Shown here: piece after piece, positions 1,280-30,190 of the stretch
How the letters are laid out: every line of letters starts with the position of its first letter
Numbering within the stretch: the stretch's first letter is position 1
Source: an uncultured Erysipelotrichaceae bacterium
GTDB taxonomy: Bacteria > Bacillota_I > Bacilli_A > Erysipelotrichales > Erysipelotrichaceae
Direction of reading: 5' to 3'
DNA: 32,000 bases
NCBI GenBank assembly: GCA_942493105.1
Contig: OW818668.1
Location: 270,001-302,000 of the forward strand
Notes under the pieces: model-generated
The model's input: the letters and a program-made list of their open reading frames with translations, nothing else
Databases searched by the model: none
Told to the model about the DNA's origin: nothing
Translations under genes and position numbers: made by a program

Positions 1280-3766
1280 TTAGATAAATAGGGTTGTCCC
1301 AACGTTTTCGTTGTGGGAGATGTAGGTCCCTACGCCACCCAATTCTACCCCATCGATCAATTCTGCAGCTTTGATGCCCATAAGATCCATACTCATTGTA
1401 CAGGCAATGAACTTGACCCCTAGATCAGCACAGCTCTTCATCATCAAATCCAATGAATCTACATTCTTTTGTTTCATGATCATCTTGATCATTTCAGGAC
1501 CCATACCCATCATATTCATACTGGATAAAGGTAAGTGCTTGGTTCCACGAGGCATCATGAATCCAAACATCTTCTCAATGAAATTTTTCTTGACTGAGAC
1601 ATGAGTTGATTTACGTAAAACATTTAATCCCCAGAAGGTGAAGAAGATGGTGACTTTTTTGCCTTGAGCAGCTGCACCTTGGGCAATGATCATGGATGCC
1701 AATGCTTTATCCAGTTCGCCTGAGAATAAGACGATGGTTGCATTTTCTTGATTCAAAGCACCTGTGCTTAATTTTGCTTGGGATTTTTGTCCCTTCACGA
1801 TTTCAGCGATGTATTTGTTGCCTTCAAGATTGAGGGAAACTAAAGTATGACCATTACTCTTACACCAATTTTCAACATCACTGGAGAAGCCTGGATCGGT
1901 TGCGATGATACGTACACCATCGCCCTCATTGGCATTCTGAATAGCTTTATAAAGCGATAATAAAGGTCCTGGGCATTGCATCCCTGTTACGTCGACTACT
2001 GTGAAATTGCCTTTAGGAGCCACAGTCTTAGCTTGGCCTGTTGTTTCATCGACTTTGTCTGCACTGATCGATGTCCGATTGGCTGAATTCAAAACATACT
2101 TATATGATTTATAGGTGCTGTATCCACCAGAAACATTATACAGATTGGTAAATCCATGGGCTCTTAAGATTCGAATCGCGATGTAAGCACGTAATCCAAC
2201 TTGGCAATTGACATGGATCGGAGTATCTTTAGATACAGTGATTTCACCTAGACGATCTCTCAATTCATCGACTTCGATGTTTAAGGCATTTCCGATATGA
2301 CCTGTACTATATTCAATCGGTGTACGAACATCCAGGAAGAAAGCATCTTGTTTGACCAGTTCATCGATTTGAGCTGGATAAGTTACTTTATAATCCCCTG
2401 ATATAACGTTTTCCGCTATATAACCCAGGATATTGACTGGATCTTTTGCAGAAGAGAACGGAGGTGCATAAGCCAATTCTAAATCAGATAAATCAGTGAC
2501 CTTGGCTTTACATTTAATTGCGGTCGCAATGACATCGATTCTTTTTTCTGTGCCATCCTGTCCTACTGCTTGAGCTCCAACGATTTCTAAAGTATCCGTG
2601 TTATATATCAACTTTAGGGATATGTTGGTTGCATTTGGATAATATGAAGCATGATTATTTCTGTGGGCATGAATGGATTGAACTGGGATCTTTCTCATTT
2701 CAGCCAAACGTTGATTGTTGCCTGTTGCGGCGACAGTTAGATTAAAGACTTTGAGCACAGAAGTTCCAAGTGAACCTTTATATTCAACATCGGCACCATG
2801 GATGATATCGGCAACCAAACGTCCTTGACGATTGGCTGGCCATGCTAAAGCAATGGCAGTATCAACATTCGCAACGACATCATTGACTTGAATCGCATCA
2901 CCGATGGCATAGATGCCTTCAACGATTGCATTGGTTTTAGCGTCCATGACTTGAAGTTTTGATGTTGTGGCGATATGACCACGAGGGCCAACCAATAGTT
3001 CTGCTTTTTTAGCTAATGTATTTTCAGGAACAACCCCAATAGCTAAAATGATCAAATCGGTCTCAATGGTTTTACCTGATTCTAAGTTAACATTCTTACC
3101 TTGATTAGAGAAATTCAATAAACCATCACCTAAAACCAACTTTACACCATGGGTATTGAGTTCTTGATGAACCAATTGAGCCAATTCAAAATCGATCGGC
3201 GCCATGACTTGCGGCATTTTTTCAACGATGGTGACTTCAATTCCACGTTCAACAAGATTTTCAGCCATTTCTACACCAATGAAACCACCACCTACAACGA
3301 CAGCCTTTTTAGGTTGTTTTGTTTCGATGAAACGGAAAATCGCATCGGTATCCGGGATATTTCTTAGTGTGAAAAGATTGGTAGCTTCTTTAAGACCTTC
3401 CAGAGGAGGAACAATCGGTTTGGCTCCTGGAGATAAAATCAAAACATCATAGGATTCAGTATAGATTTCGCCTGTCTTTGTCTTTTTGACACTGACAGTC
3501 TTGTCTGCACGGTTGATATCAACGACTTCAGAGAAATTTCGGATGTCCATATTGAAACGTTCGGTCATCCCATCAACGGTTTGAACCAACAAATCGTCGC
3601 GATCTGTAATCACTTTACCGATGTAGTAAGGCAGTCCGCAATTCGCAAAACTGATATACTCATCTCTTTCAAACATAATGATCTGATCTTCTTCACTTAA
3701 ACGGCGTAATCTGGCAGCTGCGGTTGCACCACCAGCGACACCTCCAACAATAAGAATTTTTTTCAT
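1280..3766 (-). CDS. CoA-disulfide reductase / NADH-dependent persulfide reductase family flavoprotein fused to rhodanese, TusA(SirA)-like and DsrE/DsrF-like domains
   Basis: N-terminal GGVAGGATAA FAD fold with redox Cys in SFANCGLPYY (CoADR/Nox family). Rhodanese active-site loop is VNCQVGLRAY, the TusA motif is GMQCPGPLL, and the C-terminal DsrE-like region is ATIVLFSGELDKA...FFTFWGLN...KFIACTMSMD. Single 828-aa ORF. Confidence 0.85.
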   Translation of the reverse strand: MKKILIVGGVAGGATAAARLRRLSEEDQIIMFERDEYISFANCGLPYYIGKVITDRDDLLVQTVDGMTERFNMDIRNFSEVVDINRADKTVSVKKTKTGEIYTESYDVLILSPGAKPIVPPLEGLKEATNLFTLRNIPDTDAIFRFIETKQPKKAVVVGGGFIGVEMAENLVERGIEVTIVEKMPQVMAPIDFELAQLVHQELNTHGVKLVLGDGLLNFSNQGKNVNLESGKTIETDLIILAIGVVPENTLAKKAELLVGPRGHIATTSKLQVMDAKTNAIVEGIYAIGDAIQVNDVVANVDTAIALAWPANRQGRLVADIIHGADVEYKGSLGTSVLKVFNLTVAATGNNQRLAEMRKIPVQSIHAHRNNHASYYPNATNISLKLIYNTDTLEIVGAQAVGQDGTEKRIDVIATAIKCKAKVTDLSDLELAYAPPFSSAKDPVNILGYIAENVISGDYKVTYPAQIDELVKQDAFFLDVRTPIEYSTGHIGNALNIEVDELRDRLGEITVSKDTPIHVNCQVGLRAYIAIRILRAHGFTNLYNVSGGYSTYKSYKYVLNSANRTSISADKVDETTGQAKTVAPKGNFTVVDVTGMQCPGPLLSLYKAIQNANEGDGVRIIATDPGFSSDVENWCKSNGHTLVSLNLEGNKYIAEIVKGQKSQAKLSTGALNQENATIVLFSGELDKALASMIIAQGAAAQGKKVTIFFTFWGLNVLRKSTHVSVKKNFIEKMFGFMMPRGTKHLPLSSMNMMGMGPEMIKMIMKQKNVDSLDLMMKSCADLGVKFIACTMSMDLMGIKAAELIDGVELGGVGTYISHNENVGTTLFI

Positions 3767-4028: not shown

Positions 4029-4913
4029 CTATTTCTGTATATAATACAGAAACATTGCATCTATGTTTTTTCGGATATCCAAACGATTCATCGGTAAGAT
4101 CAACTCATGGCGAGCATAATCAAAAAACGGAACGATCAAAGGCTTGTGTGAAGAAAGACAACGCAAGCAACCTTCAAGTCTTAAATCAGTTGCTTGTTCA
4201 CTCAACAAGATACCTGCTTTAGAGATTGAGATCGCCATCGCATCGGTGATGACTTGCATTTGATCTAGATTGGTTTCATCTGGTGAGATCGCAGAAATCA
4301 GCAGATGCTTGACTTTTGATTGATTACACGGAAAAAAGGTTGATTTAAAAATAGACTTGTTTAAAGAATTATTGACCAAAACAATACTGGAGACCTCTAA
4401 AGTATGAATCTTCGCATACAAGATATGATTGAGAGGCGTTTGTTGAGACAACACAAGAACTTCTCTGGAGCCGTCAAATTGATTCAGTATCTCTAATGAA
4501 GCTTGTATCAATCGATCGGCTTGGCCCACATTACTGATCAGTGCTAACTTAGGTAATCTGCGTTCCAGTAAATCTGTGTCACCGCAAGTATAGATAAATA
4601 ACGGCGCATCAGTTCCTAAATCGTTGATGAAGCTGCTTGGATACTCAATCTCATAGCGATGATAGATCCTGATGCGTGGTTTTAATCGAGCAAAAGCAGC
4701 TTCTGTTTCCCTTCTTAAAAGCTGATAAATCACAGGAAAGAATTCTACGAATTTGGTTGCCTCAAAATGAGTATGATAAAAAGTCTGGACATCCAATAGG
4801 TCCATAAGATTATCTTTGGTGATAAGTTTAGACACTGCCCTTTCATCTTGAACCAATTTCTTTAAGATTGCGTAGTTGATGGCTAAATGTCGATTGAGTT
4901 GGTTTTGATTCAT
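4029..4913 (-). CDS. hypothetical protein with divergent DprA/Smf-like (SLOG-superfamily Rossmann) pattern
   Basis: 294 aa. APLFIYTCGDTDLLERRLPKLALISNVG... then EVLVLSQQTPLN... then HLLISAISPDE...MAISISKAGILLSEQ...HKPLIVP runs parallel by eye to the DprA blocks (LYxxGNxxLL, vaIVGSR, vSGxAxGID, liSEyPP, RNRiiaGLS..vlVvEA, reVfavP). The GxAxGID motif is not conserved. Start overlaps the upstream stop (ATGA). Confidence 0.45.
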   Translation of the reverse strand: MNQNQLNRHLAINYAILKKLVQDERAVSKLITKDNLMDLLDVQTFYHTHFEATKFVEFFPVIYQLLRRETEAAFARLKPRIRIYHRYEIEYPSSFINDLGTDAPLFIYTCGDTDLLERRLPKLALISNVGQADRLIQASLEILNQFDGSREVLVLSQQTPLNHILYAKIHTLEVSSIVLVNNSLNKSIFKSTFFPCNQSKVKHLLISAISPDETNLDQMQVITDAMAISISKAGILLSEQATDLRLEGCLRCLSSHKPLIVPFFDYARHELILPMNRLDIRKNIDAMFLYYIQK

Positions 4914-5941
4914 GTGTGATTCTTTAGATTGAGTTCAAGCCTATGTTTATAATCTTGGATAACGTGGTTAGGAGATAAGATCTTGATTTGGTCACCGAAA
5001 GTAAAGATCCAGGCATAAAAAGTGGGGCTAGTTTGCACATTCAGTTTTACACTGAAATGTTTATCGTCATAAGGAATGACCTCGATCTGACGTCCATAAT
5101 GATCGATCACGGCTCCAATCAAATCATTCTTGATTTTTAACGTTACTATTTCTTGTTGTCCAGAAAACATATCAAATATCCCCTCAATATGTTTTTGCAG
5201 ATTCAAGGTTGAAGGGACAGGGATTACCTTGAATTCAGTTGAAGATACCTGTTCCATTTTATCAATACGATACGTTATAAATTCTTTGTGTTTATCATGA
5301 TAGGCAACCATATAATATTTATCATCATCCCATATTAAACAAACAGGATTAGCTGTATAAAAACCCCCGCTTTTTCTAAATACTTTTTCTTTTATCAAAC
5401 CGATATCATAGTATTTAAATTTGATTTGTACTTTATCGCTTATGGCTTGATGAATCGTATTGACTGAGACATATATTTTTTCATTATCTGTTTTTGGACG
5501 CTTTGTGATTAAAACCTGCTGTTGTAACTTTTGAGCCTCATAGACACTAACATTAGATGTGACCAGTTTACCAATCAGTTCTTGGCTTTTCTTTTCTGTG
5601 ATGAATTTTGCGGCCAATACAGCGTCTACCAGTAACTTTAGTTCAGGCAATTCGAATTGACGATTCCCGATGGAATATTGATTTTGCTTGGCACGATTGG
5701 TAATGATGTCGACGCCTGTGCTTTCCAAGAGCTTGATGTATTGATAAATGCTTTTTCGTTCAGTTGAAATGCCTTCTGTTGAAAGTTTGTTCATAATGTC
5801 TTTAACACTAAGCTGATGATTATCATCACTGTACTTCAATAAAATATCATAAACTTTTAAAAGCTTAAGTTGATTTTTACCTACATTACTTTGATGATAC
5901 TGATCATCTTCTTGATCTAAATTGCTATCTAGTGGTTCCAT
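4910..5941 (-). CDS. HTH + WYL domain transcriptional regulator (PafBC/BrxR/CapW-like architecture)
   Basis: 343 aa. N-terminal winged-HTH-like LKVYDILLKYSDDNHQLSVKDIMNKL...ERKSIYQYIKLLE. Central WYL-type region IKFKYYD...ANPVCLIWDDDKYYMVAYH...ITYRIDKM. C-terminal extension (WCX-like) ...FYAWIFTFGDQIKILSP. Confidence 0.8.
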   Translation of the reverse strand: MEPLDSNLDQEDDQYHQSNVGKNQLKLLKVYDILLKYSDDNHQLSVKDIMNKLSTEGISTERKSIYQYIKLLESTGVDIITNRAKQNQYSIGNRQFELPELKLLVDAVLAAKFITEKKSQELIGKLVTSNVSVYEAQKLQQQVLITKRPKTDNEKIYVSVNTIHQAISDKVQIKFKYYDIGLIKEKVFRKSGGFYTANPVCLIWDDDKYYMVAYHDKHKEFITYRIDKMEQVSSTEFKVIPVPSTLNLQKHIEGIFDMFSGQQEIVTLKIKNDLIGAVIDHYGRQIEVIPYDDKHFSVKLNVQTSPTFYAWIFTFGDQIKILSPNHVIQDYKHRLELNLKNHT

Positions 5942-6065
5942 AAGTGACCTCGCGTGATGTTTCTATTGTACAACCCTTTGGACAGATAAACAAGGAAGCT
6001 TGGATGAAAAGACTTTTAATAGACCCGCTTTTCTTCTATAATAAAGGCAATGAAATGAGGCTCAT

Positions 6066-7292
6066 ATGGAAACCCTATTAGAACGTTTTATCCGTTATGC
6101 AAAAATAAACACCAGGTCTGATGAAAGCAGTCAAACTGTCCCTTCAACATTAAACCAAGTAGAGTTCGCTAAGATGCTGGAAAATGACTTAAAAGGCTTA
6201 GGCCTCAGTGATGTTAAAATACATCCAGTAAATGGATTTGTTTGTGCAACATTGCCTTCCAATACAGATAAAGCAGTTGATCCTATAGGATTCATAGCTC
6301 ATATCGATACAGCAGATTTCAATTCTGAAAACATTCAGCCACAAGTGGTCACCAACTATGATGGATTGGATATCGTCCTTAATAAAGACCAAAACATGAT
6401 CTTGTCTCCAACTCTTTTTCCTGCATTACTGGATTTAAAAGGCCACACGTTGATTACGACAGATGGTACGACACTACTTGGTGCTGATGATAAAGCTGGT
6501 GTCTGCGAAATCATTGAAGCCATGATCCATTTGTTAAAACATCCTGAAATCAAACATGGAGAAATCAAGATTGCCTTTGGACCTGATGAAGAAATTGGAA
6601 GAGGCGCAGATTTATTTGATGTAAAAGATTTTAATACTGCTTTTGCCTATACGATGGATGGCTCTGTCTTAGGTGAATTGGAATATGAAAGTTTCAATGC
6701 TGCTAAGGCTTTGGTTAAACTTCATGGGGTCTCTGTTCATCCAGGTGGCGCAAAAGATAAGATGATTTCTACAAGTAAACTTGCCTTTGAATTTGATAGC
6801 CTGTTGCCTCAAAACGAAGTTCCAGAGCATACTGAAGGCAAAGAAGGCTTCTATTTCTTATCAAGTATGAAAACAGAAGTTGAAGAAGGCGAGATGCACT
6901 ACATCATCAGAGATCATGATAAAGCTAAGTTTCTTTTAAGAAAAGAACAGATACAAAAGAATGCAGCGTATCTTAATGATAAATATGGTGCCAATCGTTT
7001 TGAAGTCATCCTAAATGACCAATACTACAATATGAAAGATGTCATTCAAAATGACATGCGTTCAGTAAACTTAGCTCTTAAAGCCATGGAAAACTTAGGC
7101 ATTGAATCCAAAATTTCTGCCATCCGCGGAGGTACAGATGGATCCAAGATCTCCTTCATGGGGATACCGACCCCTAACCTCTTTACAGGCGGAGGCAATT
7201 ATCATGGGAAGTATGAATATGTCTCTTATGAAGTGATGTTGAAGGCTGTTGATACCATCGTTGAGATCGCAAGGCTCCACGCTGCTTCTTAA
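6066..7292 (+). CDS. pepT: peptidase T (tripeptide aminopeptidase, M20B)
   Basis: LERFIRYAKINTRSDESS...IGFIAHIDTADF...TTLLGADDKAGV...FGPDEEIG...IRGGTDGS... are hallmark PepT blocks over the full 408 aa. RBS-like GAGG lies upstream of the ATG. Confidence 0.92.
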   Translation: METLLERFIRYAKINTRSDESSQTVPSTLNQVEFAKMLENDLKGLGLSDVKIHPVNGFVCATLPSNTDKAVDPIGFIAHIDTADFNSENIQPQVVTNYDGLDIVLNKDQNMILSPTLFPALLDLKGHTLITTDGTTLLGADDKAGVCEIIEAMIHLLKHPEIKHGEIKIAFGPDEEIGRGADLFDVKDFNTAFAYTMDGSVLGELEYESFNAAKALVKLHGVSVHPGGAKDKMISTSKLAFEFDSLLPQNEVPEHTEGKEGFYFLSSMKTEVEEGEMHYIIRDHDKAKFLLRKEQIQKNAAYLNDKYGANRFEVILNDQYYNMKDVIQNDMRSVNLALKAMENLGIESKISAIRGGTDGSKISFMGIPTPNLFTGGGNYHGKYEYVSYEVMLKAVDTIVEIARLHAAS

Positions 7293-7300
7293 ATTCATTT

Positions 7301-7327
7301 AAAAGCTGAGATTTCTCAGCTTTTTTA
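7301..7327. terminator. bidirectional rho-independent terminator between convergent pepT and the radical SAM gene
   Basis: AAAAGCTGAG-ATTT-CTCAGCTTTT (7301-7324) followed by TTT, with A/T runs on both sides. The TAA of the minus-strand gene (7325-7327) lies in the T tract. Confidence 0.75.
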
Positions 7328-8149
7328 TACATTCCCTAAATAAACGTGTTTTAAATAAACATCAGCAATGGATTTTAGTCTTACCAATGTCGCTAAAGGA
7401 GTTGGTTTTAAATTGCTCCATAAATGATTGGGAAAGAATCGTGTGATATGTAAAGGCAGTTCTGGATCGATCGATGCTAACCATTTTGCCTCCGCTTCCA
7501 TATCTTCGTAACTGTCATTTTTACCAGGGATAATGAGGGTTGTGACTTCTACATGGGCAAACTTTTGAGCAGTTTTAATGTTGGTTTTAACATTCTCTAA
7601 ATCACCGCATAATTGTTTATAAAAGTCTGAATTGAATCCCTTCAGATCAATATTATAAGCATCTATAACAGGTAATAGGTGGTTCAGTATCTCAGGTTCA
7701 ACCGTTCCATTGGTGACTAGTACGGTCTTTAAACCTTCTGCCTTGGCAAGTCTTGAGGTCTCCAAAACATATTCATAATTGATTAGGGGTTCATTATATG
7801 TAAAGGCAATCCCAATGTTGCCTTGGCTTTTCATTTTGATTGCCAAGTCTACCACATCCTTTGGCATCATTGTTTGCATAGACAACTCATCTGGTTTTGC
7901 CATTGAAATTGAATGATTCTGACAAAGTGGACACTTGAGATTACAACCGGCAGAACCAATCGATAAGATTTTTGTGCCGGGATAAAATCTTAGAAGAGGC
8001 TTCTTTTCTATTGGGTCTAGTGCGATTGAACTTATTTTCCCATAGTTTAAGGGAACATTTTTTCTTTTATCATTTTTTCTGCCTTGGCAAAATCCAATCT
8101 GTCCTTCTTCAAGATGACAATGATGAAAACATACCATGCATTCAATCAT
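7325..8149 (-). CDS. AmmeMemoRadiSam system radical SAM enzyme
   Basis: MIECMVCFHHCHLEEGQIGFCQGR...ALDPIEKKPL...GSAGCNLKCPLCQNH (CX3CX2C)...FTYNEPL...VLVTNG... are typical of the family. I start at ATG 8149 (8-nt overlap with the upstream stop); ATG 8137 is an alternative. The track ORF extension to 8308 overlaps the upstream gene and is rejected. Confidence 0.85.
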   Translation of the reverse strand: MIECMVCFHHCHLEEGQIGFCQGRKNDKRKNVPLNYGKISSIALDPIEKKPLLRFYPGTKILSIGSAGCNLKCPLCQNHSISMAKPDELSMQTMMPKDVVDLAIKMKSQGNIGIAFTYNEPLINYEYVLETSRLAKAEGLKTVLVTNGTVEPEILNHLLPVIDAYNIDLKGFNSDFYKQLCGDLENVKTNIKTAQKFAHVEVTTLIIPGKNDSYEDMEAEAKWLASIDPELPLHITRFFPNHLWSNLKPTPLATLVRLKSIADVYLKHVYLGNV

Positions 8150-9437
8150 GATGACGAATGACCTCGAATCGCTGAAGAAGATAATCTTCATGGTCTGATA
8201 TTCCACCTTTTTGAAGGGCAATCGATATTTGTTGTTGAACTGATTCAACCCCATCAAGATCTGGAAGCAATAAACCTTTACGATGTCCTTTAGATACGAT
8301 GACACCATAACGTTTTGGATCTAATTGTTCTGGACCATCTATATTCTCAGCAGGTCCTAAGACATCAACATGTATTTCAAGTTGATCTAATTCATCACTC
8401 CTGATGGGACTAAAACGATAATCCTCTGTAGATGCCCAAATCGCACAGTTGATGATTTCCTGGGCAACATTTTGTTTGGTTGCACTGATGGTTCCAATGC
8501 AGCCTCTTAATCGGCCTTGTTTGTGAATCGAGACAAAGACTCCTGCTTTCTTATTTAGTAACTCTTTTGGAGTGTTGATGGGCACTTCAAGCACAACTTG
8601 ATCAAGGATGATGCTTCTTATGGCTTGTTTTGCCAAATCAACATACGCATCTTTCTTCGTGATAAAGGAAGCACAGGCATACCCTACCCCAAAGACATCT
8701 TCATATGACTCCAGTTTTGATGTATATTCTAATCCTTTTAAAACACCACTCATAATCAGTAGTGAACGAAAGCCGCATTCTGCCGCTTCATCACAGAGCT
8801 TTGAATCTAAATATGATAAACCTTCTAGATCTCCTTTACTTAATAAATCTGTGATCTCATGATCAAATCTTGGACCTGAAGGATGAAATCCATAAGGCCC
8901 ATCTACTTTTAATCGATGTGATAAATCTCCGCTTGCGATATAGACAATGCGTTTATTCAGTGTTTGGGCAAGGGATTGGATTTGATGGCCCAATTGAATG
9001 TGTGTTTGACGATCCAATCCAGAAAGTCCAAGTCTTACAAAAGTGAAGTCTTGTATTTCTTTGAGAATAAAACTAAGTGGAACTATGGTACCGTGATCTA
9101 AAGGAGTTGGGGTATTGATCCTTTTAACCCGATCATTGACTTTACATAGCGCTTCAATAAATTCGTGATCGCTCTTTATTTTTATGTGAATCTGTTTCGC
9201 TCCAAATTGAGCAAGATCACCTTCTTCACTTTCATTTGATGTGATAAAGAAATGATCACTTAAGAATGGAGCATGTGGTGAACTTAAAATGATGGTATCT
9301 GGTTTTAGTCGTCCGATCATTTTCGCAATCGCTTGGAAACTTTCAATGGTTTTATTTATGGTTTTTTCTTCGCCATGACCAATGTCATGGAGAATGATGG
9401 GAGGATGAGGCAATACAAAACACCCAATGATGCTCAT
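8142..9437 (-). CDS. fusion protein: class III extradiol dioxygenase (LigB)/Memo-like domain + AMMECR1 domain (AmmeMemoRadiSam system components B-like and A)
   Basis: N-terminal ~270 aa: FVLPHPPII...IILSSPHAP...PLDHGTIVPL...YIASGDLSHRL...FDHEITDLL are LigB/Memo-fold blocks. C-terminal ~170 aa: AGVFVSIHKQGRLRGCIGTI...STEDYRFSP...YGVIVSKGHRKGLLLPDL is a canonical AMMECR1 pattern. Confidence 0.8.
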   Translation of the reverse strand: MSIIGCFVLPHPPIILHDIGHGEEKTINKTIESFQAIAKMIGRLKPDTIILSSPHAPFLSDHFFITSNESEEGDLAQFGAKQIHIKIKSDHEFIEALCKVNDRVKRINTPTPLDHGTIVPLSFILKEIQDFTFVRLGLSGLDRQTHIQLGHQIQSLAQTLNKRIVYIASGDLSHRLKVDGPYGFHPSGPRFDHEITDLLSKGDLEGLSYLDSKLCDEAAECGFRSLLIMSGVLKGLEYTSKLESYEDVFGVGYACASFITKKDAYVDLAKQAIRSIILDQVVLEVPINTPKELLNKKAGVFVSIHKQGRLRGCIGTISATKQNVAQEIINCAIWASTEDYRFSPIRSDELDQLEIHVDVLGPAENIDGPEQLDPKRYGVIVSKGHRKGLLLPDLDGVESVQQQISIALQKGGISDHEDYLLQRFEVIRHHD

Positions 9438-9484
9438 AATGTTCTCCTTGCTTAAGATACTTTTAGTATAGACCTTTTTAAGAT

Positions 9485-9512
9485 AAAGAAAAACCCGTCT
9501 TAATTAACGGGT
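9485..9512 (-). terminator. rho-independent terminator after the GGDEF/HD-GYP gene
   Basis: ACCCGT (9493-9498) / 8-nt loop containing the TAA stop / ACGGGT (9507-9512). On the minus strand it is followed by TTTTTCTTT. Confidence 0.6.
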
Positions 9513-12064
9513 CTTTCGAGGAAACTATCGATGGTATATATATTAGTACGCGTTGGCTCAACGATGATCTTACCACTAGTGATGAGTTCAATGAAGATGT
9601 CAGTGAGTTCAGGATCAAACTGAGTTCCTGCATTTCGCTTGATTTCATTAAGTGCATAATCGATGTCTTGATTCATCTTATACTGACGATCTGAGGTAAT
9701 CGCATCGAAGGCATCTGCCAGAGCAATACATCTAGCACCGAAAGGAATACTTTCGCCAGCGATCTTACGGGGATAACCTTTTCCATCCCAACGTTCATGG
9801 TGACCAATAACACTTGGGATAACTTTAGAGAATGAAGGCAAATACTTTATGATGGTGATGGATAGATCCACATGTTTCTTCATGGTTTCATATTCATCTG
9901 TGGTTAAACGGCTTGTCTTAGTCAATACATTCTCAGGAACTCCAATTTTACCAATGTCATGAAGCAAAGAAGCCAGTCGTATGATTTCAACTTCAGAAGG
10001 TTTAGCGCCTGATGCTTCAGCAACAGCAGTGGCATATTTTGCAACACGTTGAGAGTGACCAAAAGTAACATGGTCTTTCGCATCGATGGTTGCAGTCAAG
10101 GCATAAACTGTAGCCAATTGATTTTCATCCAAAGCAATGCCTTCTTTAGAGTCTTCATTGATGGCTGAATTGAAGAGCACCGTCTTATTACGACCGCCTC
10201 GTTTAGCTTCAATCAAAGCCAAACCGGCATTCTTCAGCAACAATTTATCATCTGCAGCTTGCGAAGGATAGGTACATAATCCACAACTGACCGTCAGTTG
10301 TCGAGCTGGTTCATCAGGTGCAGAAACAGATGTTTGTTCAATGACGACACGTATCTTTTCCATGAGGTCATACGCTTTTTTAGTGTCTGTATTAGGTAAA
10401 ACCACCGCGAAGATATCTCCAACATAACGGCAAACTAAACCATTGTCTCCAACGACTTGCTTGATCTTAGCAGCAAGTTTTGTTAAAGCGGTATCTCCTG
10501 CATAGTGTCCATATAAATCATTGTATACATTAAACATGTCGATTCCAGTCAAAGCTAGAGATACATTATTGGTCTTGGATTGACTTGTGATACCTATCAA
10601 GTAATCCATGAAATAACGATGATTATAGGTATTGGTCAAAGCATCGATCGTGGCTTCTTCACGTGCTTTTTCAAACAAAATAGCATTAGCGATCGCAATA
10701 GAAGCAGTCATACATACCATGTTGATCTGATCTGTATGAGGAATATCACGAATGGAATGAGTATCTTTATGACACATCAAGACTAAACCAATCAGCTTTC
10801 CATTAGATTTCAATGGAACAGCAGTTTCAAACAAGATACCATTTAAAGCTCTGCGATCTTGGTCCCAAATGGTTTTAAAGAAGGCATTGGTATCAAGTGA
10901 TTTTCCATAGATCAATTCATCATATTGCTTAAACCACAACACAAACGGATGATTAACACTGATTTCAAATGAAACACTTTCTAGTTTACGAGACGAAGCA
11001 TAGAAAGCATAGTTCCCACTGACATCATCTTTTAAGAACAGATAGTTACGGGCATTACCACTCACATCAGATACAGCACTCATTAAACTATCGATGATCT
11101 TATTGAGTTCCAAGTTATTGGCAATCTGACGAGTAAAACTGGCAATACGTTCTTCTCTGACTTGTTCTTCTTTATAGAATATGTTGTTGACCAAAGTATA
11201 GATCACTTTAAACAAAGGTTGGAAGATCAACAAAGATACAAAGGTAACGATTAAGATAAACAAGTTGTTGTCTAGTCCAGTATTGAGTTGATTGAAGAAT
11301 GTAATCAAACCATTGACGGCAAAAATACTCCCAATGGTGATTGCAGTTAGTAACATGGTAAATATAACAGCTTTGGTGATAACAAACTTCAACTCAAGAA
11401 CACGGTTACGATAAATCGCATACATCATAAACAAGGATGCAATACTTCCCGCAAAGAAGTCAATAGGCCACTTCCCTATGACAGGTATTAAGTTAGCACC
11501 TATCCCAATGAAGATGATAAACAATGCGACCATGATGTTCTTTAGGCCACCCAAATATCTTGATTTACGATATTCTCGTTGCGCCAAGAACAAACAAGAC
11601 AACAATAAGGCGAAAATCAATACATAAGAGATATAGGCACCAATGCCCAAGGAATAGTTTAATTCAATAAAAGGTGACACTGGTATCTTGACCATGACTG
11701 CTGAGATGGTGGTAAAACCCATGATGTTGACGATTTGCATCGCAACTTCTAATATTCCCCACAATAATAATGAGAAATAACGCTTCATATGAATGAACAC
11801 GGTAAAGAAAATATAACCTGTGTACGGGATCATCATCAAAGCCGCAACCATTGTACGCTGCCAGAATAAGGTTCCTGGTGTTACATTAAGTTTCATCATC
11901 AAGGTTGAGAAGGACCATACAGTCATCGATGCCATCATCAGCATAAATGTTTTAATGGTCAAATCTTTTTTAGACAAAGCTAAAATAACGAAAATCGAGA
12001 ACGAGAAAATTAAGGATAGAATTGGGATACCCCAATAGATGGTCACATAGATTTGATCCATCAT
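9500..12064 (-). CDS. membrane sensor protein: multi-pass TM domain + GAF-like + degenerate GGDEF + HD-GYP (c-di-GMP phosphodiesterase type)
   Basis: About 290 aa of hydrophobic helices, then a GAF-like segment. The GGDEF-domain blocks are ALTNTYNHRYF, GIDMFNVYNDLYGHYAGD and RYVGDIFAVVLP, so the signature reads VGDIF instead of GGDEF. HD-GYP is intact: HDIGKIGVP and HHERWDGKGYP. Confidence 0.85.
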   Translation of the reverse strand: MMDQIYVTIYWGIPILSLIFSFSIFVILALSKKDLTIKTFMLMMASMTVWSFSTLMMKLNVTPGTLFWQRTMVAALMMIPYTGYIFFTVFIHMKRYFSLLLWGILEVAMQIVNIMGFTTISAVMVKIPVSPFIELNYSLGIGAYISYVLIFALLLSCLFLAQREYRKSRYLGGLKNIMVALFIIFIGIGANLIPVIGKWPIDFFAGSIASLFMMYAIYRNRVLELKFVITKAVIFTMLLTAITIGSIFAVNGLITFFNQLNTGLDNNLFILIVTFVSLLIFQPLFKVIYTLVNNIFYKEEQVREERIASFTRQIANNLELNKIIDSLMSAVSDVSGNARNYLFLKDDVSGNYAFYASSRKLESVSFEISVNHPFVLWFKQYDELIYGKSLDTNAFFKTIWDQDRRALNGILFETAVPLKSNGKLIGLVLMCHKDTHSIRDIPHTDQINMVCMTASIAIANAILFEKAREEATIDALTNTYNHRYFMDYLIGITSQSKTNNVSLALTGIDMFNVYNDLYGHYAGDTALTKLAAKIKQVVGDNGLVCRYVGDIFAVVLPNTDTKKAYDLMEKIRVVIEQTSVSAPDEPARQLTVSCGLCTYPSQAADDKLLLKNAGLALIEAKRGGRNKTVLFNSAINEDSKEGIALDENQLATVYALTATIDAKDHVTFGHSQRVAKYATAVAEASGAKPSEVEIIRLASLLHDIGKIGVPENVLTKTSRLTTDEYETMKKHVDLSITIIKYLPSFSKVIPSVIGHHERWDGKGYPRKIAGESIPFGARCIALADAFDAITSDRQYKMNQDIDYALNEIKRNAGTQFDPELTDIFIELITSGKIIVEPTRTNIYTIDSFLERPVN

Positions 12065-13671
12065 GAGCGTGATCCTTGTCCAAAAGCGAGTTTCATGACT
12101 TCAACTTCATCGAAATGGTTAGGGTTGACCTTTTGCATCGGATGAGAAATGGTTGCTTGATACTTTTCTAAAGTACCTGAAGGTATGATCGTTACTTTCA
12201 AGGGTTCAATCCCTAGCATTTTATATAGATTGGCGTAATCACTATCGATGTATTTAAAGTAGATTTCGAGTTGTTCTTTGATCAAATCCGCATTGTCAAT
12301 GCCAGGTTCATTTTGAGGATGATTGATTTCACAGGTCAAATTGATATATGGACGAGCTTGAGAGTCATAACATTTGCGCGCAAACCATGCATCGATGTGT
12401 AAATGAGATAAAGTAATGGCTTCACGAATCGTGGCTTCCGTAATACGGGTAAATCCTGCCAAATCAATGACTGGATCAACGCGATCAATATATCTAAAAT
12501 GTGGTAAGACGACCCCGTCGTTCTTTTGGGATCCAATTTCATACTTGAAGATATCACCTACACGATAACGCGCAAAAGCACCGCCCTTAAAGGTAGTAAT
12601 GACGAGTTCATAGTATTCGTCTTCTTTGATTTCATCTAAAGTATAGGTTTTACACTGATGATTAGGATTCTCTAGATTCTTGTAGAATTCACTCATCGGG
12701 ATAAATTCATAGAAGCATACATTAGGCAATAAAATCAAACCATCTTTGACCCAAGATTCAATCGCGATACAAGTGACTTCAGTTCCACCAAACACTTCTA
12801 GTGGACGAATGCCCCAGTATTGTTCAATTTTCTTTTTAAAATGTAAGGTATCTGTTCCTATACAAACAAAACCTTTAAGATTGAATACATCTTTTGGATA
12901 TACAGGACGATTTTGTGCTTTAGCAATCATTTTTGCTTTGGTATAAGTAGCTAAGCGACTTAGTTTAAAATTCCCAAGTTTAACTTTAGAAGAGCCCTTA
13001 TTGCCTTCTATGAATTGCTCACTCATCCTAACGATGACACTGGACAAACCATAAAAAAGATCAAGACCTTGTTGAAGACCCATCTTAAAGCCTTCTTTAT
13101 TACGCTGACTAAAGCCCATCGCATTGCCTTCTTTAGCCGGCGGAAAGAAATTGACACTGTACTCACCAGCCAAGACATCCGGTAATAAACCTGTAAGATA
13201 AGGTAGGGGGGCCATTCCATTCAAGAAATTCATACCGACCTGCAAATCAAATTGTCCTCTAGCTTTACTAGAAGCTAAAATGATACATGCTAAACAAGCA
13301 TCTTTATAGTTCTCTACCATGCCTTCAGAATACGGGGCGACTTTTACAGGCGCTTTTCCGCCTTCCCAAGTTGTTTCGATCCAAACAACAGGTTTAGCTG
13401 GTAGCATTTTTTCATCTTTACTCAACAAGATATCCGCATAATCATCATAATCCGTTAAAGGACACATCTGCCTGAATTCAGCGATGGTTCTAGGATGTTT
13501 TCCCTTTAAGATCTTCTTACCCAATTCACTCTTACTGAAAAGACCGATTTGTTCCATCAGTAAACTGTTTTGGATGTCCATGAATCCTTGGACCGACAAG
13601 TCTAAGAACCCGCAATAGCGAGCCCATATTTCATCATGTTTTTTGGCTTTCAACAACTCGTCAAAATTCAT
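12061..13671 (-). CDS. GH3-like / ANL-superfamily adenylate-forming enzyme (acyl-acid amido synthetase-like)
   Basis: 536 aa. The overall pattern recalls bacterial GH3 family proteins: N-terminal ...QNSLLMEQI...GKK...EFRQMCPLTDYDDY, a phosphate-loop position TTWEGGKAPVKVAP, then VFGGTE and RYRVGDIF. Family call made by eye only. ATGA overlaps at both ends. Confidence 0.5.
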   Translation of the reverse strand: MNFDELLKAKKHDEIWARYCGFLDLSVQGFMDIQNSLLMEQIGLFSKSELGKKILKGKHPRTIAEFRQMCPLTDYDDYADILLSKDEKMLPAKPVVWIETTWEGGKAPVKVAPYSEGMVENYKDACLACIILASSKARGQFDLQVGMNFLNGMAPLPYLTGLLPDVLAGEYSVNFFPPAKEGNAMGFSQRNKEGFKMGLQQGLDLFYGLSSVIVRMSEQFIEGNKGSSKVKLGNFKLSRLATYTKAKMIAKAQNRPVYPKDVFNLKGFVCIGTDTLHFKKKIEQYWGIRPLEVFGGTEVTCIAIESWVKDGLILLPNVCFYEFIPMSEFYKNLENPNHQCKTYTLDEIKEDEYYELVITTFKGGAFARYRVGDIFKYEIGSQKNDGVVLPHFRYIDRVDPVIDLAGFTRITEATIREAITLSHLHIDAWFARKCYDSQARPYINLTCEINHPQNEPGIDNADLIKEQLEIYFKYIDSDYANLYKMLGIEPLKVTIIPSGTLEKYQATISHPMQKVNPNHFDEVEVMKLAFGQGSRS

Positions 13672-14237
13672 GTTTTCTCTTTCCCCAGCGTACTGAAGGT
13701 CCTTCTAAGTTCTTTGGTTCCAAAAAACAGAAAGGGAGTCGTCTCCTTATATCGAGTATATCCTTGGAGTGTCTTGACGAAAAATACCTTATCTTGTACA
13801 TAAACATGCAGGATATCCATCAATGTCCAAACCATAGCGGCTACCAATAATGTTCCATTGCCTAAAGCTAAAGCTCCAAACAAGGTGGCCAGAAAGAAAC
13901 CCCAAACCCCAGGATGACGACAAAGTGCATAAAGACCAGTGGTCACGATCTGGGAAGTTTCTGTTGTTTTTACATAGGTCTTCCCAAAAGGCAAAGCGAA
14001 GAATAAAGCATAAACCATCTCTATCAAACCAAGTATGGAAATGATCCAAAACAGGGGTTGAGCATTAAAGGAAAATAAAGGCGTTTCATCGCTAATGATC
14101 AGAGCGGTCGCGATGATCAGGGTGATGATCCCAACTGCAAACAATCCATTCAAAAGAGGGTGAAGCATTTTAAGCTTATTGAAGTCAAACAAGGTCAATA
14201 TGAAGAAGGCAAAAACACCTAACAAAATTGGACTCAT
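13668..14237 (-). CDS. membrane methyltransferase family protein (isoprenylcysteine carboxyl / phospholipid methyltransferase-like)
   Basis: 189 aa with 4-5 TM helices. VTTGLYALCRHPGVWGFFLATL resembles the ICMT/PEMT motif (tsGxYxxxRHPxYxG). RBS GAGGGG lies upstream. Confidence 0.6.
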   Translation of the reverse strand: MSPILLGVFAFFILTLFDFNKLKMLHPLLNGLFAVGIITLIIATALIISDETPLFSFNAQPLFWIISILGLIEMVYALFFALPFGKTYVKTTETSQIVTTGLYALCRHPGVWGFFLATLFGALALGNGTLLVAAMVWTLMDILHVYVQDKVFFVKTLQGYTRYKETTPFLFFGTKELRRTFSTLGKEKT

Positions 14238-14444
14238 GAGTTCCCCTCAAAGTGTGTATTTTTATTATACACCCCTTCTGAAACACAATACAATAGGATT
14301 TTCATAACATTTACATCAAAAAACGCTTAATTTAAAAGAGATTATGAAGCTCTCATAGACAACGCTGATGATTGTGTCATATTTCATTGTCTTGATCAAT
14401 AAGAATTTGATCAAAGAGTCATAACACTTCATACGCAATCAGAC

Positions 14445-22507: not shown

Positions 22508-22523
22508 AATTTTAGATTAGTTA

Positions 22524-22620
22524 ATATTCTGGTAAACCAGTTCGAAAGACTGGGGCACAAAGTTCGACATCTAAAGTTCTTCGGAACCATGATCGGTCAA
22601 TTGCGTAATTGAGTTTCTTT
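22524..22620 (+). promoter_or_regulatory. candidate c-di-GMP-I (GEMM-I) riboswitch with downstream weak hairpin / U-rich tract
   Basis: GGTAAACCAGTTC-GAAA-GACTGGGGCACAAAGTTCGACATCTAAAGTTC-TTCG-GAACCATGATCGG. Helix 22537-22543/22548-22553 is capped by a GNRA loop. The CACAAAG junction and a second helix (22565-22570/22589-22595) with a CUAAA bulge parallel the V. cholerae Vc2 aptamer as I recall it. Hairpin TCAATT-GCGT-AATTGA (22597-22612) is followed by GTTTCTTT. No covariance-model search was run. Confidence 0.55.
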
Positions 22621-22656: not shown

Positions 22657-23079
22657 ATGATCAAAACGAAGTTGGGGATGACCTTTGTTGAAGTGATTGT
22701 GGCGATGGCGATTTTCGCCATTTTAGTCGTTGCAATATTCCCTGCTTTCATGTTAGGCATCAAGCTTAATGCTGTATCAAAAGTTCAAGTTGAAACCGCA
22801 ACGGTTTCTCAAAATATAATGGAAGAAGTTTATTCATATTCGTTGACCAGTAATCTATCAACCACGATTACTGCTCTTTCAGCAACTTATCCAAGTCCAG
22901 TTACAGTTGGTTCTGTAACGACCTTAACAAGAACGACAGCTGACTATACGATCGTTATTGTATTTACAGCAAATTCACCACAAAATGGTATGACTAAAAC
23001 AAAAGTAACAGTTACCAAACTAAACAATCCTTATGGAGCTTTACCAGGGCAGGCTGAAACAATCCTGATTTTTAGGTAA
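22657..23079 (+). CDS. prepilin-type N-terminal cleavage/methylation domain protein (minor pilin)
   Basis: MIKTKLG|MTFVEVIVAMAIFAILVV has a short basic leader, Gly-1, Glu+5 and a hydrophobic helix. 140 aa, first gene of the pilus operon. Confidence 0.75.
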   Translation: MIKTKLGMTFVEVIVAMAIFAILVVAIFPAFMLGIKLNAVSKVQVETATVSQNIMEEVYSYSLTSNLSTTITALSATYPSPVTVGSVTTLTRTTADYTIVIVFTANSPQNGMTKTKVTVTKLNNPYGALPGQAETILIFR

Positions 23080-23082
23080 AAT

Positions 23083-23517
23083 ATGAAAAATAAAAAAGGA
23101 TTTACACTTATTGAATTAATTCTAGTAATGGCGGTCACGACAATCCTTTTAGGTACAATCGTTGCGATCTTCTTACAGAGCATAGATATGTATAAAACTG
23201 ATGAAACAAAATCAGCCAATCAATCCAGTTTGAACATGGTTTCCACAAGACTAGATGCATCTCTTAGAAAAGCTTCTGATGTGTATGTGGATGGTGATGG
23301 ATGTCATATTGTACACAGCACCTCTGAAGAAGTGTTCAATATCAACACCACCACAAAAACCATTTCGATTAATGGAGCTCATTTGACTGATCGTATCGCT
23401 GAGTTCACATGTTCAAATACCGCTAATGTGATTACCGTCTTTGTCAGGACCATCAATGACAGTAAGGGAAGTTCATTGACTTATAATTCGACCATCGTCC
23501 TTAGACAAGGAGAATAA
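23083..23517 (+). CDS. prepilin-type N-terminal cleavage/methylation domain protein (minor pilin)
   Basis: MKNKKG|FTLIELILVMAVTTILLG is a canonical class III signal. 144 aa, starting 3 nt after the previous stop. Confidence 0.8.
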   Translation: MKNKKGFTLIELILVMAVTTILLGTIVAIFLQSIDMYKTDETKSANQSSLNMVSTRLDASLRKASDVYVDGDGCHIVHSTSEEVFNINTTTKTISINGAHLTDRIAEFTCSNTANVITVFVRTINDSKGSSLTYNSTIVLRQGE

Positions 23518-23519
23518 AC

Positions 23520-25076
23520 ATGAAAACATTAAAGGAAAGATTAACACTTAATAAATCTGGCGTCGTATTGATGTCCGTTATGATCATTTTGTTGGTCATG
23601 ACCATCATCATATCTGGTGTCGTATTTATCACCGTAGCCAATCTTGAGAATTCTCAAAAAACAGCTTCTCATACAGAAACATTTTATGTTGCGGAAGGTG
23701 GAGTCAACTATCTGACCCAAACCTTTGAAAACTTCTATGCAACAGTTCCAACCACAACTTCAACCTCATTCTTTACTGCAATCGATAATTTTGCTGCGAC
23801 TTATCCAGTCAGCAATAAGCAAGTGGTTTCATTCTCAAACAACAAAGGTAAAACATCTGAAGCAAGAATTTGGATCACCCCATTAACGGTTACTGACCCT
23901 AGCGTCCATCGCTATCAGATCTTCTCTGATGGCTATATTGGCAACGTTAAACGCACATTATCAAGAATCATGGAAGTCAGCTATATCAATGGTGGATTGG
24001 CTTTCAAAGACGCTGTTTTAGCTGTAGGTAAACTAGCAGTTGGAGGAGCATATATTGATGGCAGTATTCAAACAACTTCAACCGCTACTCCTGCCATTAC
24101 CTTTTTAGGTGGTACAGTTGACGCAGTCTATATTCCAAGCGGAACTGTTCCGACGGATGTTGTCGATTCTTCAAACTATAACAACTCAATTCCAGGACTT
24201 GGGACTGCCGGGATTTATCAACAAGACCCGCCGACACTAAATCCGATAATTGTATTAACTGCTCCAGTGACAACTACCAAGTTAAAGAATTTCACTTTCA
24301 CAAGCGGCGGTAAAAGTTATCAAATCATTAATAATGGAAATTTCTCAATTACTTCTACAACCAATTTAAGTGTTCCAACAGTATATAATCTTGGAAATGA
24401 AAATCCAGGACAGTCAGTTTTCTATGTGCCCAATCTAAAAGTAACAGCATTAGCGCCTAATTTTACACTAGAAATCAACCGTGATATTACCTTAGTAACA
24501 GATACATTATGGTTAAATAATCAATTTAAAGTTACTGGCACAGGCAAACTAACGATATTTGTTAAACCTAGTGGCAGTACTTCATCAACGAATACAAAGT
24601 TACAAATCAATGCCAGTGGTATCGTAGGCAATCAATCAGATTCTACTAAGATGTCGATTTATGTAGGGGCTTTAACTTATAAGAGTGGTAGCTCACAATT
24701 GCCGTGGACACTTACATTAGGATCTGGCAGTTATTACTTCAGTTTGATTTGTGCCAATTTAAATATTGATTTGGCAGACTCCACACTAAGAGGAGCAGTG
24801 GCTACAAATGGCGCTAAAGTCTTTATCGGACCAAGCTCCGCTTCATCCGCTATCCTTCTGTATGCTCCATTGGCTGAAGTTCAAATGAAGTCATCATCTT
24901 CGAGTTTCTATGGGGCTATTGTTGCCGGAAGTTTTGTGAGTAGCACAGGTAACAGTCATCCTACTATTGTTTATTCACCGGCGGTGAACACATATATTCC
25001 AGTTGATGTTATCGATTTAACGGGTATAAATTCGCCACCAACCATAACCGTTGTAAAATCCCCTACTCAAGAATAA
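23520..25076 (+). CDS. large PilX/PilK-like pilus-associated protein (putative minor pilin or tip/adhesin subunit)
   Basis: 518 aa. N-terminus ...NKSGVVLMSVMIILLVMTIIISGVVFITVANLENSQKTA...FYVAEGG resembles the PilX N-terminal domain, with a Gly then a hydrophobic helix but no Glu+5. The rest is Ser/Thr/Asn/Val-rich. It lies directly after two minor pilin genes. Confidence 0.55.
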   Translation: MKTLKERLTLNKSGVVLMSVMIILLVMTIIISGVVFITVANLENSQKTASHTETFYVAEGGVNYLTQTFENFYATVPTTTSTSFFTAIDNFAATYPVSNKQVVSFSNNKGKTSEARIWITPLTVTDPSVHRYQIFSDGYIGNVKRTLSRIMEVSYINGGLAFKDAVLAVGKLAVGGAYIDGSIQTTSTATPAITFLGGTVDAVYIPSGTVPTDVVDSSNYNNSIPGLGTAGIYQQDPPTLNPIIVLTAPVTTTKLKNFTFTSGGKSYQIINNGNFSITSTTNLSVPTVYNLGNENPGQSVFYVPNLKVTALAPNFTLEINRDITLVTDTLWLNNQFKVTGTGKLTIFVKPSGSTSSTNTKLQINASGIVGNQSDSTKMSIYVGALTYKSGSSQLPWTLTLGSGSYYFSLICANLNIDLADSTLRGAVATNGAKVFIGPSSASSAILLYAPLAEVQMKSSSSSFYGAIVAGSFVSSTGNSHPTIVYSPAVNTYIPVDVIDLTGINSPPTITVVKSPTQE

Positions 25077-25106
25077 ATTCTGCTCAAGAAGAAAGGAGCT
25101 CATTAT

Positions 25107-26303: not shown

Positions 26304-26326
26304 GAAAAGGAAAGAAGGAGCACTCT

Positions 26327-27226: not shown

Positions 27227-27228
27227 TC

Positions 27229-27792: not shown

Positions 27793-27793
27793 T

Positions 27794-28429: not shown

Positions 28430-28493
28430 ACACCAGACATAAGAATTTATTCCACTAAGCATGGCAGACACAAATGTACAAGGAGCAATCATC

Positions 28494-30182: not shown

Positions 30183-30190
30183 GGGGACCC

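Follow-up and report, generated by a model that had tools for sequence, protein, structure and literature searches.

The window analysed here, 32,000 nucleotides of contig OW818668.1 from an uncultured Erysipelotrichaceae bacterium, carries on its minus strand three consecutive genes that encode, in order of transcription, an ICMT-like membrane protein (gene 1), a GH3-like adenylating enzyme (gene 2) and a multidomain sensor protein of cyclic di-GMP (c-di-GMP) turnover (gene 3; Table 1). A preliminary description of this DNA had proposed that the two enzymes and the c-di-GMP protein form a small-molecule modification and sensing module. Our analysis shows that genes of these three kinds are kept together across orders of Bacillota, and that the constant partner of the GH3-like enzyme is the sensory part of gene 3. 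Direct reading of the sequence bore out the ATGA overlaps reported for both junctions of the trio (13668-13671 and 12061-12064), at which the stop codon of the upstream gene overlaps the start codon of the next. Since such overlaps are frequent in operons, the weight for a linkage beyond chance lies with conservation across genomes.

By sequence criteria, the trio is a self-contained transcription unit. The Wzx-like gene upstream, which has a Polysacc_synt Pfam match, ends in its own hairpin and T-run, and gene 1 is preceded by a perfect -10 element (TATAAT, 14269-14264) and a GAGGGG ribosome-binding site, which together argue that the three genes are separate from their upstream neighbour. 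The putative promoter, in which this -10 element is paired with a weak -35 element (TTGTAT, 14293-14288) across an 18-nt spacer, was identified by direct reading, the -35 element scoring under the threshold of the promoter scan. A single terminator serves all three genes, as had been described, with its hairpin now placed as in Table 1 instead of at 9485-9512 and its stem overlapping the stop codon of gene 3. Taken with the promoter and the geometry of the junctions, this terminator appears compatible with a single transcript.

The assignment of gene 2 to the GH3 family was supported by both profile and fold searches. Its product matched Pfam GH3_M (PF23571) with 52.6 bits against a cutoff of 23.6, and the GH3 N-domain (PF03321) with 20.3 bits, under the cutoff of 23.6; most orthologues have a recorded match to the latter. 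When a profile of the gene 2 family was compared with the PDB, plant GH3 structures alone matched (E ~1e-8). The AlphaFold2 model (predicted local distance difference test score, pLDDT, 85.4) has a two-domain adenylating fold of the ANL type whose nearest solved structures are those of GH3 enzymes, the best Foldseek matches being GH3.15, OsGH3-8, PBS3, GH3.6 and JAR1 (E 1e-19 to 1e-21, template modelling (TM) score ~0.6), with PaaK-type ligases ranking after the plant GH3s. We compared the sequence with the three nucleotide-binding motifs of GH3 enzymes, SSGTSxGxxK, YGSSE and GLYRYRLGD, as defined previously (PMC12493201). Motif 2 is present as FGGTE and motif 3 as KGGAFARYRVGD (GAFARYRVGD), both invariant in the family, and the position of motif 1 holds an equally invariant WIETTWEGGKAPVK; this replacement, WIETTWEGGxxPxK, keeps TT...G..P.K and loses SGT. 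One GH3-like homologue of 685 residues (P0037) repeats a C-terminal region of ~150 residues and has a duplicated C-terminal domain.

We place gene 1 in the ICMT/PEMT superfamily as a divergent member, an assignment that is borderline. The RHPGVWG motif on which the preliminary call of an isoprenylcysteine or phospholipid methyltransferase was based lies at residues 107-113; the assignment reaches the superfamily level, and the Pfam ICMT score (23.7 bits) falls just under the cutoff of 24. Scores were further below threshold for Pfam PEMT (21.1 bits against 25) and for the NCBIfam isoprenylcysteine methyltransferase model (19 bits against 160), and some orthologues have precomputed matches to PF04191. 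A family profile of 45 members found a single match among PDB sequences, the archaeal Ma-ICMT structure 4A2N (E=6e-4, residues 29-175), and the AlphaFold2 model (pLDDT 89.7) gave as its best Foldseek matches 4A2N, the steroid 5-alpha-reductase (SRD5A) structure 7C83 and the eukaryotic ICMT structure 5V7P, all of them weak (E 0.1-0.3, TM 0.37-0.46). Like Ste14/ICMT enzymes such as Ma-ICMT, gene 1 encodes a predicted polytopic helical protein of ~190 residues that carries RHP and, towards its C-terminus, a Y..Y..P segment, and its invariant columns are RHPG, D149, Y160, Y163 and P168-F169. It departs from them at the cofactor-site motifs (RHPxY..., EExxLxxxFGxxYxxY), where the tyrosine after RHP is missing (RHPGV for RHPxY) and QD replaces EE. 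Methyltransferase activity is plausible, with indirect support from the class-I SAM methyltransferases that occupy this position in other lineages. To our knowledge, a CaaX prenylation system is not expected in these bacteria, so the substrate of gene 1 must differ from that of ICMT, for which a lipidated amino-acid carboxylate is the minimal substrate.

The architecture first described for gene 3, several transmembrane segments followed by GAF, GGDEF-like and HD-GYP domains, was confirmed, with HisKA_7TM, GGDEF and HD_5/HD scoring above their Pfam cutoffs and seven hydrophobic segments evident in the hydropathy profile of the N-terminus. The GAF domain, weak in the window copy, was recognised through the orthologues, 18/20 of which match GAF_2 (best E 1.3e-9). 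Across the 66 full-length orthologues (loci L001-L085), the HD and HHExxDGxGYP motifs are invariant (66/66), and the GGDEF signature takes two forms: it reads GGEEF in Clostridia-type proteins and is degenerate in those of Erysipelotrichales (VGDIF, AGDIF, GGDVF or GEDTF, with VGDIF in the window). The GGDEF domain of gene 3 also lacks the RxxD I-site. With GGDEF degenerate and HD-GYP intact, the window protein most likely acts on c-di-GMP as a phosphodiesterase only, its GGDEF domain being predicted as non-catalytic, and the Erysipelotrichales sensors appear to have undergone a lineage-specific shift from a bifunctional to a phosphodiesterase-only protein. HisKA_7TM itself has been catalogued as a sensor domain only, with no ligand (PMC5847659, PMC6944256).

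Table 1 Position of the features discussed in the text, within the 32,000-nucleotide window.
Feature	Position	Strand	Description
Gene 1	13668-14237	minus	189 amino acids (aa); polytopic membrane protein, putative S-adenosylmethionine (SAM)-dependent methyltransferase, divergent ICMT/PEMT/SRD5A superfamily member
Gene 2	12061-13671	minus	536 aa; soluble enzyme resembling the adenylate-forming acyl-acid amido synthetases of the GH3 family (ANL superfamily)
Gene 3	9500-12064	minus	854 aa; domains in the next four rows
HisKA_7TM region (PF16927)	11210-12064	minus	gene 3 residues ~1-285; Pfam 32.3 bits against 28.6
GAF	10688-11110	minus	gene 3 residues 319-459; GAF_2 E=0.03, full-length profile spanned
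GGDEF	10184-10654	minus	Pfam 112 bits; signature degenerate, RYVGDIF for GG[D/E]EF
HD-GYP (HD_5)	9605-10087	minus	Pfam HD_5 123 bits; LHDIGK and HHERWDGKGYP intact
Intrinsic terminator	9478-9517	minus	hairpin 9517-9488 with 12-bp stem and 6-nt loop, then T-run
Putative sigma-70-type promoter of the trio	14264-14293	minus	read from sequence
Ribosome-binding site of gene 1	14248-14243	minus	GAGGGG
Two TTGATCAA palindromes, 7 nt apart	14392-14414	minus	leader, upstream of the putative promoter; candidate operator or regulator site
Wzx-like gene	16027-14489		Polysacc_synt match
Terminator of Wzx-like gene	~14480-14447		hairpin and T-run
LigB/Memo-like and AMMECR1 fusion	9437-8142	minus	directly past the trio terminator; pair with next row spans 7325-9437
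Radical-SAM activase-like gene	8308-7325	minus	overlaps the fusion gene
WYL/WCX-domain regulator	4910-5941	minus	overlaps next row
Open reading frame	4029-4913	minus	294 aa, without Pfam match
Multidomain fusion	1280-3766	minus	828 aa; probably sulfur-trafficking or CoA-persulfide reductase-type
c-di-GMP-I riboswitch (RF01051)	22521-22608	plus	58.7 bits (gathering score 35)
Type IV pilus operon	22657-31243	plus	nine genes, headed by the riboswitch

To find out how far the trio is conserved, we surveyed the neighbourhoods of gene 2 relatives. Close relatives occur in 518 species-representative genomes, the nearest, 98% identical, in an Erysipelotrichaceae metagenome-assembled genome, and the best 80 loci (48-98% gene 2 identity) were analysed by locating the partner genes with tblastn and open reading frame (ORF) calling. 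Represented among them are Erysipelotrichales, Syntrophomonadaceae, Pelotomaculum/Desulfotomaculaceae, Peptococcaceae, Oscillospiraceae, Anoxynatronum and Tindallia. A sensor gene lies less than 400 nt downstream of the GH3-like gene on the same strand at every locus with sufficient sequence (75/75), usually overlapping it or less than 40 nt away, and at 65/67 testable loci the GH3-like gene is preceded, in the same orientation and at no more than 1.7 kb, by an ICMT-like gene. The ICMT-like gene is directly adjacent in 62 loci and 250-980 nt upstream in 12 more, most of which hold a class-I SAM methyltransferase gene between the ICMT-like and GH3-like genes. Even the most divergent ICMT-like homologues found (~35% identity) are still inside a trio. 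The linkage of the GH3-like gene to both partners is thus conserved across Bacillota orders almost throughout. Of the outcomes that the preliminary description had named as contrary to its idea, neither failure of the GH3 call in profile searches nor absence of the linkage from other genomes was seen, and as far as computation reaches, the sequence signals fit co-transcription.

Clustering of the neighbouring ORFs showed that the trio genes alone are widely shared (85, 78 and 72 of 85 loci) and that their flanking genes are unrelated between lineages. This bears on the explanation that the genes have no functional link and are neighbours by descent only. Within the close subfamily, vertical descent from a single ancestral gene order might in principle be enough, but the order is kept from 98% down to ~33% GH3 identity, across orders and between unrelated flanks, and it survives methyltransferase insertion or replacement and wholesale exchange of the output domains (below), which makes simple descent barely credible. 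In 8 loci the cassette is preceded by a ThiF/E1-family gene, which in one of them (L063, 8665-9495) takes the ICMT-like slot; we considered it as a fourth member and rejected it, as it occurs in a few Syntrophomonadaceae-type loci only and apparently belongs to a neighbouring operon.

More distant relatives of the sensor were sought next. An earlier word-indexed homologue search with sensor residues 1-468 had returned only 2 matches and was uninformative; phmmer, run exhaustively with residues 1-465, returned 1116 clusters at E<=1e-3, 314 of them at E<=1e-10. Ten sampled matches showed that the seven-transmembrane (7TM)-GAF module is joined to GGDEF alone, GGDEF-EAL, HD-GYP alone, HisKA/HisKA_3 kinases, hybrid kinases or multi-GAF GGDEF proteins. 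We then examined the genomic context of seven distant sensors, 20-27% identical to that of the window, with outputs comprising HD-GYP only, GGDEF-EAL, a HisKA_3 kinase with a GerE regulator, PAS hybrid kinases and multi-GAF GGDEF. A GH3-family gene lies immediately upstream, on the same strand, in 7/7. GH3 genes are rare in bacterial genomes, so that this adjacency cannot be chance.

A methyltransferase gene precedes the GH3 gene in 6/7 of these distant loci, and it is of two kinds. Three are ICMT-like, two of them recognised at 33-34% identity (L090, L093) and one by hhalign with a probability of 99.9% (L095), and three encode soluble UbiE/BioC-like class-I enzymes (L091, L094, L096), to which NCBIfam gave no specific function. 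The presence of non-homologous methyltransferases in the same slot argues that methylation of a shared small substrate is the conserved requirement. The conserved unit is a methyltransferase of either type, a GH3-like enzyme and a 7TM-GAF sensor, with an exchangeable output. The earlier proposal of an enzyme-c-di-GMP module therefore holds for the tight linkage of enzymes and sensor and needs correction in its second half, as kinase, EAL and HD-GYP-only outputs show that the partner is the 7TM-GAF sensor and not c-di-GMP turnover. At one distant locus (L090), metK (5057-6241), encoding SAM synthetase, lies directly downstream of the 7TM-GAF-GGDEF-EAL gene, a position that would fit the consumption of SAM by the cassette. 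At another (L088), a MEDS and HD-GYP protein (90-1406) occupies the slot upstream of the GH3 gene.

Since the GH3-like gene tracks the sensor and not the output, the most economical reading puts its role at the input. We propose, with a probability of about 0.5, that the 7TM-GAF sensor reads a lipophilic amide or methyl ester, made or converted by the enzymes, as its ligand, the three genes together forming a self-contained signalling cassette. The GH3-like enzyme would adenylate a carboxylic acid at the expense of ATP and form an amide between this acid and an amino acid or amine. If OlsH, which acts on free fatty acids, is a guide, the acid would most likely be hydrophobic. The ICMT-like membrane protein would then methylate the amide product with SAM, a step that in other lineages may be taken over or supplemented by the soluble UbiE/BioC-like enzyme, and that most plausibly would be an esterification of the remaining carboxylate, as ICMT performs on lipidated cysteine. 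The end product, a neutral, membrane-partitioning amide or methyl ester, would suit a 7TM sensor, and the 7TM-GAF module may perceive this product, or the balance of precursor and product, and set the output accordingly. The molecule could be either an intracellular metabolic cue or a secreted autoinducer.

In the window, the output would be c-di-GMP hydrolysis through HD-GYP, and the resulting change would feed effectors, for example the c-di-GMP-I riboswitch of the type IV pilus operon 8 kb away. The nine genes of this operon code for two N_methyl pilins, a DUF7305 protein, PilC, PilM, PilN, a PilO/T2SSM-like protein, PilB and PilT, and its PilB has a c-di-GMP-binding MshEN domain. The operon is a likely downstream target of the c-di-GMP level set by the HD-GYP protein.

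Several observations weigh against this interpretation. For gene 1, they are the Pfam score just under the cutoff, the weak fold match (TM ~0.4) and, for methyltransferase competence, the replacement of the ICMT EE motif by QD; for gene 2, it is the non-canonical motif 1 (TTWEGG for SSGTSxG), with which ATP use could differ. In the close survey, L063 lacks an ICMT-like gene over 10 kb, and among the distant loci L088 has a GH3 gene without an adjoining methyltransferase, so that methylation may be dispensable. The set of seven distant loci is small and hand-picked. Adjacency also cannot tell the making of a ligand from its removal or from modification of the receptor. What we observe is co-occurrence and family assignment; all biochemistry beyond these, including the small-molecule modification-and-sensing role that the survey has strengthened, we infer.

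If ligand is removed and not made, the sensor would detect a free carboxylic acid, and the enzymes would neutralise this acid by amidation and esterification, resetting or tuning the signal; candidate acids would be fatty, aromatic or indole compounds, which are abundant in the anaerobic niches of the carriers. The genomic evidence for such ligand homeostasis is the same as for synthesis, and the carriers include many syntrophs that oxidise fatty acids or propionate (Syntrophomonadaceae, Pelotomaculum). It also has a parallel in plants, whose GH3 enzymes are the nearest structural relatives of gene 2 and where GH3 enzymes and carboxyl methyltransferases act on the same carboxylate hormones, such as auxin and jasmonate. 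However, the amide and the methyl ester of one carboxylate are mutually exclusive, so that a sequential pathway fits at least equally well, and the direction of information flow is not distinguishable at the level of the genes. We regard inactivation as unlikely.

The same enzyme classes could instead serve the synthesis of a bulk membrane lipid, an N-acyl amino-acid or aminolipid of the kind made by OlsH and OlsG, with the sensor merely co-expressed for a joint change of envelope and lifestyle. Of the bacterial GH3 enzymes, OlsH alone has been characterised; its product is a lipid precursor, and its operon also encodes a lipid methyltransferase (PMC12493201). Gene 1, for its part, encodes an integral membrane protein, and phospholipid methyltransferases belong to the same family, as the sub-threshold PEMT match reflects. 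Yet in our clustering of neighbouring ORFs no O-acyltransferase (OlsI- or OlsA-like) or other lipid gene emerged as a conserved companion of the trio, and the GH3 gene follows the sensor across seven output architectures, often with translational coupling, which would be unexpected of a housekeeping pathway. A survey of OlsH at >=30% identity was, moreover, without Bacillota orders (PMC12971839), which places the present enzymes in a separate GH3 clade. Taken together, these points make a bulk-lipid role improbable.

The enzymes might also act on the sensor itself, amidating and methyl-esterifying its carboxylates in a CheR-like adaptation. Chemoreceptors are tuned by CheR methylation and by Gln/Glu amidation states, both enzyme classes of the cassette turn carboxylates into neutral derivatives, the natural substrates of ICMT are proteins, and the near 1:1 genomic and often translational coupling would fit a stoichiometric partner. 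Set against this, amidation of protein side chains by GH3/ANL enzymes is not known, and the interchange of an ICMT-like with a soluble UbiE-like enzyme is easier to reconcile with a small diffusible substrate. We also looked for a conserved C-terminal motif that could make the sensor an ICMT-type protein substrate and rejected this idea, as the sensor C-terminus is not conserved. Covalent receptor modification is, in our view, very unlikely.

Regarding the surroundings of the trio, the leader matched no Rfam family at either gathering or permissive thresholds, and a riboswitch or other structured leader was rejected on this ground and because the predicted fold is about as stable as that of shuffled sequence (z-score -0.73). 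The palindromes of the leader (Table 1) are a candidate regulatory site. Neither the Wzx-like flippase upstream nor the AMMECR1/LigB-radical SAM pair downstream was accepted as part of the unit, since each is separated from it by a terminator and is conserved next to the trio in the closest relatives only; for the fused LigB/AMMECR1 gene, which with its radical-SAM activase-like partner resembles an AmmeMemoRadiSam-type pair, these are L001, L008 and L012 among the loci examined. The WYL/WCX-domain regulator and the ORF it overlaps also occur as a pair in the 92%-identity relative L001. Elsewhere in the window, one gene encodes a fusion of pyridine-nucleotide disulfide oxidoreductase, rhodanese, TusA and DsrE domains.

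Each part of the cassette belongs to a known family, subject to the reservations given above for gene 1, for motif 1 of gene 2 and for GGDEF, and the placing of an enzyme next to its receptor is of a known kind (phcBSR, Rpf/DSF, LuxI/R). Its composition, a GH3-type amido synthetase and a methyltransferase coupled to an orphan HisKA_7TM-GAF sensor, appears to be new: targeted literature searches that combined GH3 with HD-GYP, ICMT, c-di-GMP, histidine kinase or quorum sensing turned up no account of the pairing, in agreement with the preliminary view that such a module had not been reported. As in signal-synthase/receptor operons, the enzyme and receptor genes are co-inherited as a unit. The obligate enzymatic neighbour offers the first concrete route to de-orphanise HisKA_7TM and, if our proposal is right, would give bacterial GH3-type enzymes a signalling role beyond their single lipid-biosynthetic example and would echo the logic of plants, where GH3 enzymes create or destroy receptor ligands. 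In this organism, the cassette would couple c-di-GMP, and plausibly the type IV pili under riboswitch control, to a chemical cue. Cultured carriers, namely Pelotomaculum propionicicum (C1), Anoxynatronum spp. (among them A. sibiricum Z-7981), Yanshouia hominis (BX1) and an Oscillospiraceae isolate (LBM23126), make the hypothesis directly testable. A bolder extension, which we hold to be rather doubtful, is that the cassettes form a widespread family of cell-to-cell or membrane-lipid signalling systems, in which the GH3 enzyme and the methyltransferase make an N-acyl amino-acid signal, possibly a methyl ester, resembling N-acyl-homoserine lactones, and the HisKA_7TM-GAF protein is the dedicated receptor, wired to c-di-GMP turnover or to phosphorelays depending on lineage.

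The closest enzymatic parallel is OlsH, whose characterisation in 2025 as a maker of N-acyl-ornithine from free fatty acid and ATP, with no need for coenzyme A or acyl carrier protein, means that bacterial GH3 homologues can no longer be called uncharacterised, as they had been for this locus (PMC12493201). OlsH is encoded with the methyltransferase OlsG in an OlsH-OlsG-OlsI operon of Singulisphaera acidiphila (PMC12493201), and reviews describe OlsG only as related to phospholipid N-methyltransferases (including PMC12971839). Both systems place an ATP-dependent, amide-forming GH3-like enzyme with recognisable motifs 2 and 3 in an operon with a SAM methyltransferase that acts on the lipophilic product of this enzyme, the chemistry of the cassette being predicted from its genes. 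They differ in motif 1 (TSGTTQG in OlsH, TTWEGG in the cassette), in the alpha/beta-hydrolase O-acyltransferase that the cassette does not have, in the cassette methyltransferase, which is an ICMT-superfamily integral membrane protein or UbiE-like, and in the invariable operonic 7TM-GAF signalling protein. OlsH is found in Planctomycetes and the FCB group and the cassette in Bacillota, and the OlsH papers report neither Bacillota members nor a linkage to sensors.

The plant GH3s (JAR1/GH3.11, GH3.5, GH3.6 and PBS3), although only ~15% identical to gene 2 in sequence, are its best structural and profile matches and share with the cassette a logic in which a carboxylate is converted into a form that a receptor does or does not perceive, as when jasmonoyl-isoleucine is perceived by COI1. 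The plant carboxyl methyltransferases (SABATH) are, by contrast, soluble and unrelated to ICMT, and plants have no operon or fused receptor arrangement.

Among bacterial signalling systems, Rpf relays a fatty-acid signal, the diffusible signal factor (DSF), sensed by RpfC, to the HD-GYP phosphodiesterase RpfG, and Burkholderia has RpfF/RpfR. Like the cassette, these systems keep the synthase gene by the sensor gene and, as we propose here, connect a lipid-like signal to c-di-GMP hydrolysis through HD-GYP or EAL; they differ in an unrelated synthase, the crotonase RpfF, and in their sensing domains, and the Rpf route is a two-component relay, whereas in the cassette the sensor and HD-GYP are one polypeptide. 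Binding of DSF to RpfC has been described (PMC5391125). In Ralstonia, the methyltransferase PhcB makes methyl 3-hydroxymyristate, which is sensed by the co-operonic membrane kinase PhcS (PMC11960443). The phcBSR operon and the cassette both combine a methyltransferase with a membrane sensor, and the lipophilic methyl ester established for the former is predicted for the latter; phcBSR is proteobacterial and experimentally demonstrated, has no GH3-type amide step and uses a different sensor domain, whereas the cassette is known from its genes. Finally, N-acyl amino-acid methyl ester (NAME) compounds are exactly the class predicted for GH3-type N-acylation followed by carboxyl methylation; their producers are unrelated Alphaproteobacteria, and their link to the cassette is one of predicted compound class.

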